From the NCBI GenBank assembly GCA_965222115.1, contig CBDCTJ010000007.1:832001-896000 (forward strand): a stretch of DNA of 64,000 bases, read 5' to 3'. Of this stretch, positions 48,493 through 53,186 are shown one piece after another. The first letter of the stretch is position 1, and each line of letters begins with the position of its first letter. The notes under the pieces are model-generated. The model was not told the origin of the DNA. It saw only the letters and a list, made by a program, of their open reading frames with translations, and searched no databases. This stretch comes from Planctomycetota bacterium. GTDB lineage: Bacteria > Planctomycetota > PLA2 > JAEUHO01. The position numbers and the translations under genes were made by a program.

Positions 48493-48604
48493 GGGGAACA
48501 AGCGCCGTTGACTGAGGCGCAAGCGTTGGGGAGGGCTGTTACGGACCGTTGGTACCTCTGGAAGCGGTGCGTTGTAGAAGAGGCTCACACGAAGAGCACG
48601 AAGA

Positions 48605-50623
48605 GTGCGACAGGCCAAGCCTGGACAAGGAGGAACTCATGACGTGACGAAACCTTGTGATGGAGCCCAACGGGTAACCAATCCCGTCCGGCCAAGCTGA
48701 CCGAGCAGCCGGAAGCAAACCTAGCGCGCTCTGTGGGTAACTGCGGGGTGTGAAGCACTAGGCAAGCGTGTGTGCGGGCTGTGTGATTGAGCCTCGAAAT
48801 TCTTATGACTGCGGTGGCCGACGATGTTCTTTGATCGGAAGGCACCATCGGAGACGAGCGTGTAGGTCTGCTCCCTCCGGCCCGCCGGGGTCTATGAGCA
48901 GGGCACGTACACAAAGGGGCTTCCCCAGGAACCTGTGAGATCCCATGCTGTCCTTCGAGAACTCGGCGCGGAAGGGCCGTAGACACTTCCAGCAATACGC
49001 AGCACGAGGCACACGCTTGTGTTGGGTGCGAAACAAGCGTGTGAAACGAAGGTACGGCGTCGCGAAGTCACCCGAGCGGCGCTGGACGCAGGTGGGAAGT
49101 CGGAGCGCTCCGTAGTACCGATGAACGGGGGGAACCTTTCACCAAGGGACCCTCGGGAGGGATGGGAGCGCCGCTATGTGTACTCCGTAGGAGGGAACCA
49201 TGACAGAGATCCCAAGCTTTGATCCCGTGTTACCGAAACTCCGACGGATCGCAATGCTTGCGAAGCAATCCCCGGAGATGGCGTTCACGTCGTTGAACTC
49301 CGCTCTGGACATGACGTTACTGCGTGAAGCGCATCGGCGAACGCGCAAAGGAGGCGCAACGGGCATAGATCGCCAGACGGCGCAGGATTACGCGAAGGAC
49401 CTGGAGAGCAATCTCCAGAGCCTGCTAAACCGTGCCAAGTCCGGCGACCGTTACCGCGCACCTCCTGTGCGACGTGTGCATATTCCCAAGGACAAGCCCG
49501 GGGAGACTCGGCCCCTGGGGATACCGACGTTTGAGGACAAGATCCTCCAACGCGCGGTGGCCATGATTCTGGAATCCATCTACGAACAGGACTTTGACTC
49601 CTGCTCGTACGGTTTCCGGCCTGGCCGCTCGGCACACGATCTGTTGGCTGCACTTCGTAACTCGATGATGAACATGAACGGCGGGTGGGTGCTTGAAGCC
49701 GATATCCGCAAGTTCTTCGACAGCGTCGATCACGCGCAGCTAATGGACGTGCTTCGCAAGCGGGTGCGAGATGGTGTGATTTTGCGATTGATTGGCAAGT
49801 GGCTAAATGCAGGTGTCATGGAGGATGGCCGCGTGAGCTATCCCAAAGGAACTGGTACGCCGCAAGGCGGAGTGATCTCCCCCGTGTTGGCCAACATCTT
49901 CCTCCATGAAGTGTTGGACACCTGGTGGAAAGAAGATGTCGCCCCTCGCATGAAGGGGGAGGCGCATCTCTTTCGTTACGCAGATGACTTCGTGATTGTA
50001 TTCGCTCGTGAAGCGGATGCACGGCGTGTGATGGACGTCGTTCCAAAGCGCTTCGACAAGTACGGCCTTGCCATCCACCCAGATAAGACTCGCTTGGTGC
50101 GATTCAAACGCCCGCGGCACTACGACTCCGATCATGATTCGGAAACGTTCGACCTGTTGGGCTTTACGCATCTATGGAGTCGATCCCGTAAGGGATACTG
50201 GGTGATTCGGCAGTTGACCGCACGAAGTCGGTATCGCCGCGGTCTGACGCGGATGTCCAAGTGGCTCCGCTCCGTCCGCCACCAACCTGTGCATTGGCAG
50301 CGTACAAAACTGGCACAAAAACTCCAGGGGCATTACGCCTACTACGGGGTGACTGGCAATACGCGTCGGCTGCACAACTTCCGGCGGGAAGCCATACGGC
50401 TTTGGAGGTACTGGCTGTGCCGCCGCTCTCAGCGCGCCAAGATGCCATGGGATCGTTTCAACCGACTCCTACAGCATCACCCCATTCCACCATCACGTGT
50501 CACGCGCTCGATCTATCGCGCCACCTAATCGGCGACCCACATAGCGAGGAGCCGGATGCGGTAATCCCGCACGTCCGGATCTGTAGGGGGGCTGGGGAGG
50601 GAAACCTCCCCGGCCTACCCGAC
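48605..50623 (+). mobile_element. Group II intron (IIB, bacterial class E-like), full length
   Basis: 5' GTGCG at 48605; EBS1 loop GAT-GT-TCTTTG-ATC at 48823-48836; domain V GAGCCGGATGCG..CGTCCGGATC at 50549-50581; domain VI ending CCCGAC at 50623. Boundaries independently supported by the rejoined repeat. Confidence 0.93.
49200..50528 (+). CDS. ltrA: Group II intron reverse transcriptase/maturase (no endonuclease domain)
   Basis: RPLGIPTFEDK, SYGFRPGRS, ADIRKFFD, GTPQGGVISPVLANIFL, RYADDF, FDLLGF; X domain GHYAYY; 442 aa with no HNH. Confidence 0.97.
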   Translation: MTEIPSFDPVLPKLRRIAMLAKQSPEMAFTSLNSALDMTLLREAHRRTRKGGATGIDRQTAQDYAKDLESNLQSLLNRAKSGDRYRAPPVRRVHIPKDKPGETRPLGIPTFEDKILQRAVAMILESIYEQDFDSCSYGFRPGRSAHDLLAALRNSMMNMNGGWVLEADIRKFFDSVDHAQLMDVLRKRVRDGVILRLIGKWLNAGVMEDGRVSYPKGTGTPQGGVISPVLANIFLHEVLDTWWKEDVAPRMKGEAHLFRYADDFVIVFAREADARRVMDVVPKRFDKYGLAIHPDKTRLVRFKRPRHYDSDHDSETFDLLGFTHLWSRSRKGYWVIRQLTARSRYRRGLTRMSKWLRSVRHQPVHWQRTKLAQKLQGHYAYYGVTGNTRRLHNFRREAIRLWRYWLCRRSQRAKMPWDRFNRLLQHHPIPPSRVTRSIYRAT

Positions 50624-50744
50624 AACGAAGCGCAAGCGTTTACGGACGATGTCTCGGGCCATGGAGGCCATTGGAAGCCGGGCGTTGCACTTGGGGAACT
50701 TCGAAAGTTCGAGGAGTGGAGGAAGCCGATGGGGCTGTAGGTGT

Positions 50745-51209
50745 TTAGCTCGACTCGGGATCCGCGCTCCATGAGGCGTCTGTACCAGGAGAAACTGAAA
50801 AATTGGCGATTCGCTCGCACCCTTCCTTAAAGGACGCCGAGCCGAAGTTTACCAGCAGGCCCACGGGCAACTTCAAGAGTCTCAGGTACGTCAGTACCTG
50901 TTTGGAATGAACTTTGAGAAGTGCCTCACACGACTTGATTTCGACAACGACACATCGTTCTACGAGTAGATCAACTCGTAGGCCTTGGTTGAACGTCATT
51001 CCGTCGTAGGTAAAAGGCGTGCTTACTTGTTCCGCAACCAGGATGCCACGTTTCCTTAGTGAGCCTGCAAGTATCGCCTGGTAAACGGATTCCAGTAGGC
51101 CCGGTCCCAAGTCTCGGTGGATGTGATACGCGCAATCCACCACGTTTGAAATGATCTGCTCCAGCCTAGAACGTGACAGCGGGACAACGCCGACCTCTGA
51201 ATCTGACAT
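50745..51209 (-). CDS. GxxExxY protein (PD-(D/E)XK nuclease fold)
   Basis: LGPGLLESVY, RVDLLVE, VEIKS, QVLTYL, GLLVNFG. Confidence 0.93.
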   Translation of the reverse strand: MSDSEVGVVPLSRSRLEQIISNVVDCAYHIHRDLGPGLLESVYQAILAGSLRKRGILVAEQVSTPFTYDGMTFNQGLRVDLLVERCVVVEIKSCEALLKVHSKQVLTYLRLLKLPVGLLVNFGSASFKEGCERIANFSVSPGTDASWSADPESS

Positions 51210-51358
51210 CCGCACATCCTCCTATTGCATAGGATTCATCCATGATCAGGCGCCGCGTTCGTGAACGCATGCGCTCCGCGTATCTGTGTCCTTTACGTGA
51301 GTGTATTCTTCCATCTCTCCACTGTCAGGTGCGTCCACTGTCCGTAACGGCGCACATC

Positions 51359-51397
51359 AACGCTTGCGCTTCGTTTCTTAGCGCTCTTTGTGTGAGC
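51359..51397 (-). repeat. Right inverted repeat of the GxxExxY cassette
   Basis: Uninterrupted copy of the intron's target sequence, built from 7-8-nt units (CACAAAG, CGCTAAG, AACGAAG). Confidence 0.85.
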
Positions 51398-51477
51398 AAT
51401 TTGAAACCGTCCCGCCTTCGGCGGTCTCCACGGCCCGAAACCGCGTCCTCCATCGCTTGCGCTTCCTGACGCCCTTC

Positions 51478-52899
51478 TTAGTCGGGGACAGGCAACCCAC
51501 TCGGCACACTGTCGGGGATCTTGTCGAGGAGGTTGACCGAGTCTTGATCGGTGAGGCAGTGGAGGAAGGCGACGATCTGATTGACTTCTTCGTCGGTCAA
51601 CGTCACTTGTTCGAGCAGAGGGCTGATGGCGGCGATACGGGCATCGCGTCGTGTGGGATCGGTATCGACTTCGGATTGATACAGCGCGGGAAGCTGTGAC
51701 GCGTCGTAGTTGGTGAGACTCGTGGCGGCGTCAAGGTGATGGCGCACAACCGCTTCAAGCGATGTGTAGGCACCAGCATGAGTCCACGGGCCCGTGAGTG
51801 AAACGTTTCGAAGTGAAGGCGTGCGGAATTTGTATTCGTCGTCAATCAACCCGGTGACGACCGCGAGACCCTTGTCGTCACCGTTCACGTCCTTACCGGG
51901 ACCCAGTTGGGGTGCGGCAATGCCGTGATGTTGGAAGTCACTTAGCATGGGGCCGTTGTGACAGTTGGCACATCGCGCGCTGCCAAAGAACAGGATGGCG
52001 CCGCGCTTGGCGTCATCGCTCATTGCGGTCATGTCGCCCTGAAGGTACCGGTCAAACGGTGTATTGAGCGCGGTGTAAGTACGTGCCTCGTAGGCTGCGA
52101 TGGCCTTGGCCGCATGACCGAAGTTGTAGTCATCGTAGTTTGTGATGGACGGGAACGCCGCGTCGAAGAGATCGCGATAGCCCTGAATGCCGCCCACGGT
52201 GCCATCGTTCGTACCTACCAAACGCTCCATGAGCAGCGACCAAACGCCGAGGTTGTCGGCAGCGTCCGCAATCAAGTTGGATCCGGGGAGCCCACGCATT
52301 TCATCGTGCGACGTTACGGGAAACATGGCTTGTGCTGCCAGCGCCGAGTCGAGCAGCGCGGCAATCTCAGGTGACGGTGGCGTGGCCGTGTTGAGTGCGG
52401 GTTCGGGGGTGGTGAGCTCGCCCGTCACGGGATCACGCGAAACGCGGCTATCCCAGAACATGGTCGTGACTTCGTTCATTTCGGCGTTGAAGACCGCCGG
52501 TGCGTTGCGTGGAATGATGCGGCTCGTGCCTTGTTGGCGCGTGGCGCCCACGCCCGTTCCGCCTTCGCCGAGGGGCAAGGGCAATGCGTCACCGGTGGCG
52601 GCCACCGGATGATGGCAGGTCGCGCATGAAATGTTCTGATTGCCACTGAGTATCTTGTCAAAGAAGAGCGCTTCACCGAGCGCTACTTGTTCATCGGTAT
52701 GACCCTGAAGTGCCGACGGGGACGTAACGCCTGCATCGGCGAGCAACGCCTGCAGTTCGGCGTTCATCTGCTGATTGTTGCTCTCATTCACGCGGATGAT
52801 GTCGTTGGCGCGATGACACCCCGCAAGCGTTACGGCCGTGATCATGGTTGTTAGCAGACCTGCAAGTAGCGGCTGGAACAGTTGGATGCGGTGGTTCAT
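51478..52899 (-). CDS. Di-heme cytochrome c peroxidase/MauG family lipoprotein
   Basis: CATCH and CANCH; RNAP, MFWD, FRTPSLRNV; lipobox LAGC. Confidence 0.92.
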   Translation of the reverse strand: MNHRIQLFQPLLAGLLTTMITAVTLAGCHRANDIIRVNESNNQQMNAELQALLADAGVTSPSALQGHTDEQVALGEALFFDKILSGNQNISCATCHHPVAATGDALPLPLGEGGTGVGATRQQGTSRIIPRNAPAVFNAEMNEVTTMFWDSRVSRDPVTGELTTPEPALNTATPPSPEIAALLDSALAAQAMFPVTSHDEMRGLPGSNLIADAADNLGVWSLLMERLVGTNDGTVGGIQGYRDLFDAAFPSITNYDDYNFGHAAKAIAAYEARTYTALNTPFDRYLQGDMTAMSDDAKRGAILFFGSARCANCHNGPMLSDFQHHGIAAPQLGPGKDVNGDDKGLAVVTGLIDDEYKFRTPSLRNVSLTGPWTHAGAYTSLEAVVRHHLDAATSLTNYDASQLPALYQSEVDTDPTRRDARIAAISPLLEQVTLTDEEVNQIVAFLHCLTDQDSVNLLDKIPDSVPSGLPVPD

Positions 52900-53186
52900 G
52901 TAGATTCTCTCTCGCAGTTGAGTGGCAATCGGCGCGCCTGGCCCCTGCACCTACTTCGCACGAGCAGTCGTTTGGTAACAGCCCATACGCCTTAACTGTC
53001 GGCAGGTTCGAATTCTCGAAAGAGAGTCAAATCTGGCTGAGCGGATGAGGCGGCCCCCTTTAAGACGAATTCGCGACGCTCTCGGTGAAGTCGATGCAAC
53101 TGAGTTGCAGCGATATACAAAAACGACACGGCTGGCCCCTGATCGCCTCGCCCGACCACGCCATTCGCCAGCGGAGACCATGATCC

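Follow-up and report, generated by a model that had tools for sequence, protein, structure and literature searches.

The 64,000-nucleotide (nt) stretch analysed here, referred to as the window, comes from a Planctomycetota bacterium (assembly GCA_965222115.1, contig CBDCTJ010000007.1, below C7) and carries a group II intron whose intron-encoded protein (IEP) lacks an endonuclease (En) domain. The intron very probably homes by way of the roughly 40-nt core of a species-specific intergenic repeat, which offers it a harmless site in many copies, and the GxxExxY nuclease gene that lies beside it in the window plays no part. It is an ordinary En-less intron of IIB type, and the species-specific repeat is its safe haven. 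The result is a clean natural example of such an intron persisting by means of a harmless, multi-copy, transcribed intergenic repeat.

Structure of the intron

The window corresponds to C7:832001-896000 of a genome of 4.55 Mb in 7 contigs. By its sequence and its Rfam matches the intron is complete: it begins with GTGCG (GUGCG in the RNA) at 48605 and ends with ..CCTACCCGAC (..GAC) at 50623, between a 5' exon that terminates in CGAAGA and a 3' exon that opens with AACGAAG at 50624. These are the borders and exon ends implied by an initial annotation of the sequence, which placed them correctly. The AGC triad and the bulged A are visible in the alignment of domains 5 and 6, and the non-coding RNA amounts to about 690 nt, of which 595 nt precede the open reading frame (ORF) and 95 nt follow it. 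The parts of the intron and of its exons are listed below, where EBS and IBS are exon-binding and intron-binding sites and RT is reverse transcriptase.

48592-48596, + strand: putative IBS2 (AAGAG, exon positions -13 to -9), complementary to UUCUU of a domain 1 internal loop
48599-48604, + strand: IBS1 (CGAAGA), from the sequence, the comparison of copies and the aligned introns
48605-50623, + strand: group II intron of 2,019 nt, one of three near-identical copies in the genome (Rfam and genome comparison)
48678-48900, + strand: core of domain 1 (RF02005, group-II-D1D4-6; 113.1 bits against a gathering threshold of 49, model positions 1-225 of 225)
48788, + strand: tentative candidate for EBS3 (U), which may pair with the A at +1 (fit of the alignment column in four introns)
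48800-48804, + strand: candidate EBS2 (UUCUU), in an asymmetric internal loop of domain 1 (Rfam alignment and aligned introns)
48828-48833, + strand: EBS1 (UCUUUG), in a terminal loop (covariation in 7/7 introns)
49200-50528, + strand: intron-encoded RT/maturase of 442 amino acids (RVT_1, TIGR04416)
50547-50623, + strand: domains 5 and 6 (RF00029; 42.5 bits against a gathering threshold of 40)
50624-50684, + strand: 3' exon, comprising the 3' half of the repeat core (AACGAAGCGCAAGCGTT..) and the remainder of the unit; base 50624 is IBS3

The IEP matches RVT_1 (E = 3e-39) and TIGR04416, the NCBIfam equivalog for group II RT/maturases (343.4 bits, cut-off 300), contains a YADD motif, and has group II intron RTs as its nearest solved structures. 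No HNH/En or other nuclease family was matched at E<=1, RVT_1 and a sub-threshold RdRP_1 being the sole matches, and the earlier statement that the IEP has no endonuclease domain therefore holds. The DNA-binding and endonuclease (D/En) region is missing as it is in the En-less IEP lineages, that is, classes A, C, D, E, F and related groups as they are defined in PMC3552965. Judged from the sequence, the intron is probably a complete, active self-splicing element, intact, recently mobile and IIB-like in structure (the Rfam D1D4-6 type). Contigs from four sequencing runs of one study contained neither an intron-less form nor a joint across 48604/50624; most of these contigs break at the intron ends, as expected for an element in three copies, and they are uninformative on splicing or empty alleles.

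Three copies at one position of a dispersed repeat

Three full copies of the intron are present in the genome; they differ at 2 positions, both synonymous, and encode an identical protein. All three are inserted at one position of a conserved core of about 40 nt (..CACACRAAGRGCRCRAAGA^AWCGAAGCGCAA.., the caret marking the insertion point here and below). Their individual junctions are ..GGCTCACACGAAGAGCACGAAGA^AACGAAGCGCAAGCG.., ..GCGCACACAAAGAGCACGAAGA^ATCGAAGCGCAAGCG.. and ..GGCTCACACGAAGGGCGCAAAGA^AACGAAGCGCAATGCG.., which combine to the pattern ..CACAC(G/A)AAG(A/G)GC(A/G)C(G/A)AAGA^A(A/T)CGAAGCGCAA... The flanks are diverged copies of the repeat, and beyond about 100 nt the surroundings of each copy are unique. 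Because the three 2,019-nt copies are near-identical while their flanks have diverged, with no target duplication, the intron appears to have moved recently.

In searches of the genome with nhmmer, a 120-nt profile of the repeat gave 44 hits and a profile of the 76-nt unit gave 45, and the merged hits form 49 intervals that total 4,999 nt, or 0.11% of the genome. Exact copies of the 13-mer CGAAGCGCAAGCG number 13, and the count rises to 65 when one mismatch is allowed. Among 19 BLAST matches to the repeat, the block of about 40 nt that holds the intron site is the best-conserved part, with 80-98% identity in 17 other matches; the 18th is a fragment of 20 nt. Units frequently stand in short tandem arrays with three kinds of oligo-repeat linker, CACGAAG.., CACCAAGG.. 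and GCAGAGGCGCAGAG. The repeat had no match in the 25 other genomes of the family (0/25), and metagenome scans returned no match for the first 26 nt of the intron and none for a 22-nt word from the repeat core. Two arrays lie in the window:

48493-48604, + strand: 5' part of a repeat array downstream of a 3-hydroxyacyl-CoA dehydrogenase gene; its last 21 nt or so (GCTCACACGAAGAGCACGAAGA) are the 5' half of the core (nhmmer hit C7:880559-880604)
51300-51478, - strand: repeat array downstream of a MauG-like gene, inverted relative to the left array, with an empty site CTAAGA^AACGAAG (junction 51376/51375)

Throughout the genome, 26 of 33 arrays follow an ORF of 150 amino acids or more on the same strand, at a distance of about 50-450 nt; once the row derived from an IEP is dropped, the count is 25 of 32 (binomial p = 0.002). 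The neighbours that were sampled are ordinary genes (HEAT-repeat proteins, Dus, glyoxalase, arginase, GNAT). Short, dispersed, intergenic and species-specific, the repeat would thus seem to behave like an element of the repetitive extragenic palindromic (REP) type sited after genes. When 27 repeat units were folded together with alifold, neither strand yielded a conserved hairpin (-2.2 kcal/mol); short stems of the form GCGCT..AGCGC or AACGCT..AGCGTT can be drawn in some copies, but by eye only, and Rfam has no family in the arrays of the window. Since the site consists of non-coding repeats, insertions there are harmless and many sites are available.

We also considered whether the arrays are the terminal repeats of a transposon. 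This was dropped when all-against-all BLAST of the surrounding ORFs found no recurrent cassette gene; the ORFs that do recur are the two IEPs, one two-copy pair of HEAT-repeat genes and an IS110 transposase. The gene of this IS110-family transposase (DEDD_Tnp_IS110 and Transposase_20; C7:364272-365486, - strand) is about 300 nt from a repeat array, and a partial second copy (C7:2979550-2980383) is near another; the ends of both copies are unclear, and neither copy could be placed inside the repeat.

A second intron family in the same arrays

Six matches in the genome exceed the TIGR04416 cut-off, three of them being the copies described above and three belonging to a second intron, at C3:80878-82801 (+), C7:1003713-1005636 (+) and C7:1984539-1986462 (-). 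This intron is 1,924 nt long (RF02005, 169 bits) and encodes an IEP of 511 amino acids that is 41% identical to the first and has no HNH domain. It is inserted antisense in the same arrays, at ..CCTTGGTG^AGAGNCTCTTC.. (..CCTTGGTG^AGAG..), which is the junction of the repeat unit and the CACCAAGG linker. Its EBS1 loop, CACCAA, matches ..TTGGTG^, and 19 empty CTTGGTG^AGAG sites are present in the genome. Because both families sit in the repeat, six of six introns above the cut-off lie within 0.11% of the genome. A seventh RT match, at C7:262264-262971 (-), scores 158 bits with TIGR04416, below the cut-off, and is inside an open frame of 998 amino acids; it is a non-intron RT.

Exon recognition and target choice

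In the Rfam alignment, TCTTTG (48828-48833) forms the unpaired terminal loop of the domain 1 hairpin GACGAUG-UUCUUUG-AUCGGAAGGC, and as EBS1 (UCUUUG) it pairs with the last six exon bases, CGAAGA, with one G-U pair. The initial annotation had proposed both the position and this pairing, and they are borne out by comparison. Domain 1 and 30 nt of 5' exon were aligned for seven introns, namely our own, four relatives from the same bacterial family and two from Desulfitobacterium, the full set being own, L007, L008, L009, L017, L030 and L033. In 7/7 the EBS1 loop can form 5-6 bp, G-U pairs included, with the end of the intron's own, differing 5' exon, as in the EBS1/IBS1 pairs UCGUGA/UCACGA, CGGAAU/AUUCCG and CGUGUA/UACACG of the relatives. 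Because the pairing covaries in all seven, it is not due to chance. By eye, an EBS2-like pairing of 4-5 bp at exon positions -13 to -9 or -10 can be seen in six of the seven, and the column of U48788 fits the first base of the 3' exon in the four introns for which that base could be read (own U/A, L033 U/A, L030 C/G, L017 U/G). From these alignments, 48800-48804 is a candidate EBS2 and, more tentatively, 48788 a candidate EBS3.

The right repeat of the window had been said to contain CAAAGA, a perfect partner for EBS1. The word is indeed there, on the minus strand at 51385-51390, yet the counterpart of the insertion point lies 9 nt further downstream; at that homologous site the sequence is CTAAGA, which gives a U.U mismatch at -5. 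Most empty copies of the repeat likewise read CTAAGA at IBS1, while occupied ones read CGAAGA or CAAAGA.

Sites to which the intron could pair were counted after removal of the three copies in silico, with all 11 EBS2 and EBS1 positions paired (G-U allowed) and an A at +1. Of the 302 such sites in the genome, 12 are in the repeat, where 3 are occupied, and 290 are outside it, where none is (Fisher p = 4.8e-5). Six of the 12 in-repeat sites are at the homologous position of the core, and the three occupied sites are among these six. The stricter word AAGRG-NN-CRAAGA-A has 14 unoccupied sites, 13 of them outside the repeat. Since 0/290 sites outside are occupied, while empty repeats mostly mismatch at -5, pairing is necessary but insufficient, and insertion must also depend on some feature peculiar to the core. 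Common to the three occupied sites are CACAC at -19 to -15 and CGAAGCGCAA at +3 to +12, which are candidate protein contacts by analogy with other group II introns (PMC12584367). The suggestion in the initial annotation that repeats serve the intron as a multi-copy safe haven thus agrees with the position of all three copies and with the empty sites elsewhere. Target choice exceeds EBS/IBS pairing, and the additional determinants can be tested on a 40-nt target.

Related introns and their sites

Five genomes of the same family (G004, G008, G009, G012 and G021) carry related introns, whose matched stretches have 66-90% nucleotide identity to ours, and IEPs 42-78% identical over the best segment were found at 29 further loci from Pirellulaceae and Planctomycetota metagenome-assembled genomes, Adhaeretor mobilis, Mariniblastus and Desulfitobacterium. 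From these 29 wider loci and the family loci, 33 5' junctions and 26 3' junctions were read. The closest relative (G012, another genus; 71% nucleotide identity) is truncated at its 3' side after about 1.2 kb and lies at ..GACGAGAACTCG^ within a different dispersed repeat. The 90 nt 5' of it have 10 further BLAST matches in the G012 genome, this repeat can be aligned across the insertion point and beyond it, and a further copy of the repeat stands after the truncated intron. Counting our own intron, two of five close relatives examined are in dispersed repeats, so that the use of repeats among relatives is suggestive but not established.

It is possible, though we would call the idea tentative and sooner doubt it than accept it, that in this planctomycete family a sub-lineage of En-less IIB-type introns has become specialised for repeat families in 3' untranslated regions that are particular to each host. 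Its EBS loops would have been re-tuned in each host (a CACGAAG-type core here; the GTGCTCC..GACGAGAACTCG repeat in G012), with recognition beyond the 12 paired bases provided by protein or structure, as a IIB counterpart of the strategy by which IIC introns use terminators. The arrays of our genome would then be a landing pad for two oppositely oriented intron families and perhaps for IS110.

Other details of these loci may be recorded here. At L007 and L075-L084 of G012 the repeat reads ..GTGCTCCCTGTCAGACCGAACGGCACGTTCTTGACGAGAACTCG^ACAGG.. followed by a G+C-rich tail, and the 5' exons of the G008 and G021 relatives open with similar GTGCTCCGYGTCA words. At L013/L014 (G008:C9:336083-338111) the 3' exon starts with GTGCGCCAGGC, which is identical to the 11-base start of a same-type intron and suggests that this intron may have inserted into, or right at, the 5' end of a further copy or of a fragment.

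A model for homing into the repeat

In the course of events that we favour, the intron would be transcribed by read-through from the upstream gene, as the orientation of the arrays suggests, and the IEP would help it to splice, giving a lariat ribonucleoprotein (RNP). The RNP would locate the core through EBS2/IBS2 (-13 to -9), EBS1/IBS1 (-6 to -1) and EBS3/IBS3 (+1), and would depend in addition on a property of the core alone, for which contacts of the protein with flanking bases of the core are the most likely candidate. The RNA would reverse-splice into the lagging-strand template and, there being no nuclease, would be copied from a nascent lagging-strand primer at the replication fork. 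By GC skew, contig C7 has its origin at around 0.6 Mb and its terminus at around 2.75 Mb. Each of the three copies of the first intron points in the direction of fork travel, so that the intron strand is on the lagging-strand template, as expected of En-less introns that prime from nascent lagging strands (PMC7923331, PMC5010178).

Several observations weigh against this model or weaken its support. An orientation of 3/3 has p = 0.125 and proves nothing alone, and just one of the three copies of the second intron is oriented with the fork. Three core-position sites pair fully yet are empty (C7:1916296, near C7:3042025 and near C7:2094653), two of them in the fork-friendly orientation. EBS2 and EBS3 were assigned by eye from seven sequences, L008 is unclear or off for EBS2, and in L007 the EBS3 column mismatches the usual +1 base of that intron's repeat. 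The count of gene orientations comes from crude longest-ORF calls and not from a gene finder. Finally, three other close relatives have a 5' exon without clear repetitive character: of the two G008 introns, one has 4 weak matches and the other 1 partial match, and the G021 intron has 1 weak match.

Alternative explanations

The copies might have spread by homologous recombination, gene conversion or duplication instead of retrohoming, in which case the shared site would only reflect shared flanks. This is unlikely. The repeat does provide about 40 nt of 80-98% identity around the site, and there are only three copies, but that homology is short and is split by the insertion into about 20 nt on each side, and the flanks were not co-converted: the copies differ as CGAAGA and CAAAGA at -5, as AACG and ATCG at +2, and as GCAAGCG and GCAATGCG. 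EBS1, EBS2 and EBS3 suit all three sites, and the second intron, which is unrelated in sequence and has its own matching EBS1, is also found in the arrays. A yet less probable proposal is that the intron goes wherever IBS1, IBS2 and IBS3 happen to occur and that the repeat just supplies such sites, by chance or by plain base pairing. The contrast between CTAAGA in most empty repeats and CGAAGA or CAAAGA in occupied ones does indicate that pairing matters; the 290 pairable sites that stand empty outside the repeat, against 3 of 12 occupied within it, speak against pairing as the whole explanation, as do the 13 empty non-repeat sites of the stricter motif.

The initial annotation had tied the intron lineage to GxxExxY cassettes, with the intron targeting their flanking repeats, riding on the cassette, or priming from nicks that the PD-(D/E)XK nuclease introduces. 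The gene in question is the following:

50745-51215, - strand: GxxExxY / PDDEXK_3 gene, the sole one in the genome (family model matches); a neighbour and not part of the intron system

The proposal had some attraction, since the intron copy of the window is 121 nt from the stop of this gene, which is itself flanked by inverted copies of the repeat. In another family genome, G001, the GxxExxY gene (L052, G001:C124, locus 1501-1845) is also flanked by inverted oligo-repeats, GCAGAGGCRCAGAGGCGCAGAG, of the GCAGAGGCGCAGAG type that serves as a linker in our arrays, so that such genes tend to sit between short repeats, and one nuclease acting in trans on all repeat copies would be compatible with the data. 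The G001 flanks, however, have no match to the repeat profiles, and in our genome one GxxExxY gene stands against 49 merged repeat intervals and is next to only one of the three intron copies. The other two have as neighbours arginase-family, GNAT, SdrD-like and four-helix-bundle genes, the last (TIGR02436, C7:2633957-2634265) about 970 nt downstream of copy 3. The 45 loci around homologous introns (261,572 nt) gave no GxxExxY match by tblastn with our own protein at E<=1, a single query that can miss distant members of the family, and no match to the repeat profile by nhmmer at E<=0.01. The gene occurs in 2 of 26 family genomes, our own (G000) and G001, once in each, and in none of the five with related introns. 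Of five further homolog genomes examined with the family model, one has no GxxExxY gene, and the single chromosome of Adhaeretor mobilis has 14 matches, the nearest more than 160 kb from the intron.

The comparison of exon junctions that the initial annotation had called for was also carried out, and gave the outcome that it had named as refuting: none of the 33 5' and 26 3' junctions resembles the repeat core, and the tblastn search of the 45 loci gave no GxxExxY gene. Neither a repeat specific to GxxExxY nor a link between this gene and the intron lineage is upheld, and we found no support for hitch-hiking on a cassette or for borrowed nicks. The inverted placement of the two arrays in the window needs no cassette, because each follows one of two convergent genes. 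We therefore regard any tie of the intron to GxxExxY cassettes as very improbable, and the gene beside the intron copy is a bystander. A tempting but unsupported tie of group II introns to GxxExxY nuclease genes is thereby removed.

Comparison with known systems

Homing into the repeat core, as favoured here, is a known kind of repeat-directed homing with recognition beyond base pairing, and not a new mechanism. The functionally closest known system is RmInt1 of Sinorhizobium meliloti, which homes into a multi-copy insertion sequence (IS), ISRm2011-2. According to PMC1802570, PMC5010178 and PMC3552965, its IEP also consists of RT and maturase without D/En, its RNA is IIB-like with EBS1, EBS2 and EBS3, its homing site is dispensable and multi-copy, with many copies per genome, and its mobility depends on replication. 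Unlike RmInt1, the present intron has as its target a short REP-like intergenic repeat and not a mobile element, and it is present in few copies (3).

Group IIC and IIC-attC introns (PMC12584367, PMC7923331) are likewise En-less and recur in non-coding intergenic contexts downstream of genes. They use a DNA hairpin with an IBS1 of 3-4 bp, no EBS2 and a short ribozyme, whereas our intron has a 6-bp EBS1, a candidate EBS2, about 690 nt of non-coding RNA and a repeat with no conserved hairpin; membership of these groups was rejected on these grounds. Species-specific extragenic repeats are also landing sites for elements that target REPs (the IS110-family IS621, ISPa11 and ISPpu9/10), and 2 of 9 copies of a group II intron of P. 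putida KT2440 are at REPs, both as given in PMC1525189. In contrast to those 2/9, six of six copies from two families are in the repeat here, and our repeat has no obvious palindrome. The IIB introns located by attC sites in integrons or clusters of attC sites lacking integron-integrases (CALIN) of halophiles (UHB.I2, H.ha.F1/F2) resemble the present case in being IIB-type introns within arrays of short recombination or repeat sites near small cassette genes (PMC7923331). They are single or fragmentary cases with no common insertion point, against an identical point in three copies here; integron features were neither sought nor seen in our genome. A literature search, which covered neither subscription papers nor supplements, returned no description of this intron-repeat system, none of group II introns in Planctomycetes and nothing relevant on GxxExxY; for REPs it gave only the P. 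putida case.

Neighbouring genes and other repeats

The MauG-like gene of the window (51478-52950, - strand) encodes a di-haem peroxidase (TIGR03981, 268 bits, below the cut-off of 340) and is convergent to the 3-hydroxyacyl-CoA dehydrogenase gene, with an array behind each. Elsewhere on C7, 18 four-helix-bundle (TIGR02436) genes extend from C7:2274575 to C7:2848028. They fall into two subfamilies; each gene has a conserved leader of about 250 nt and stands between long tracts of the hexamer GGACGT and of the heptamer CGGGTNA, and together they resemble a distinct family of small cassettes bounded by repeats. Near genes of this family there is another repeat in five copies (C7:2276196, 2280939, 2284105, 2299517 and 2300096), which consists of a GGCCCCNNNGGGGCC hairpin followed by ..AATAGCCCAGTGTGAAGCGCAAGCGCAGCGGCGCGTAACGCTGGGTT and contains the word GAAGCGCAAGCG.

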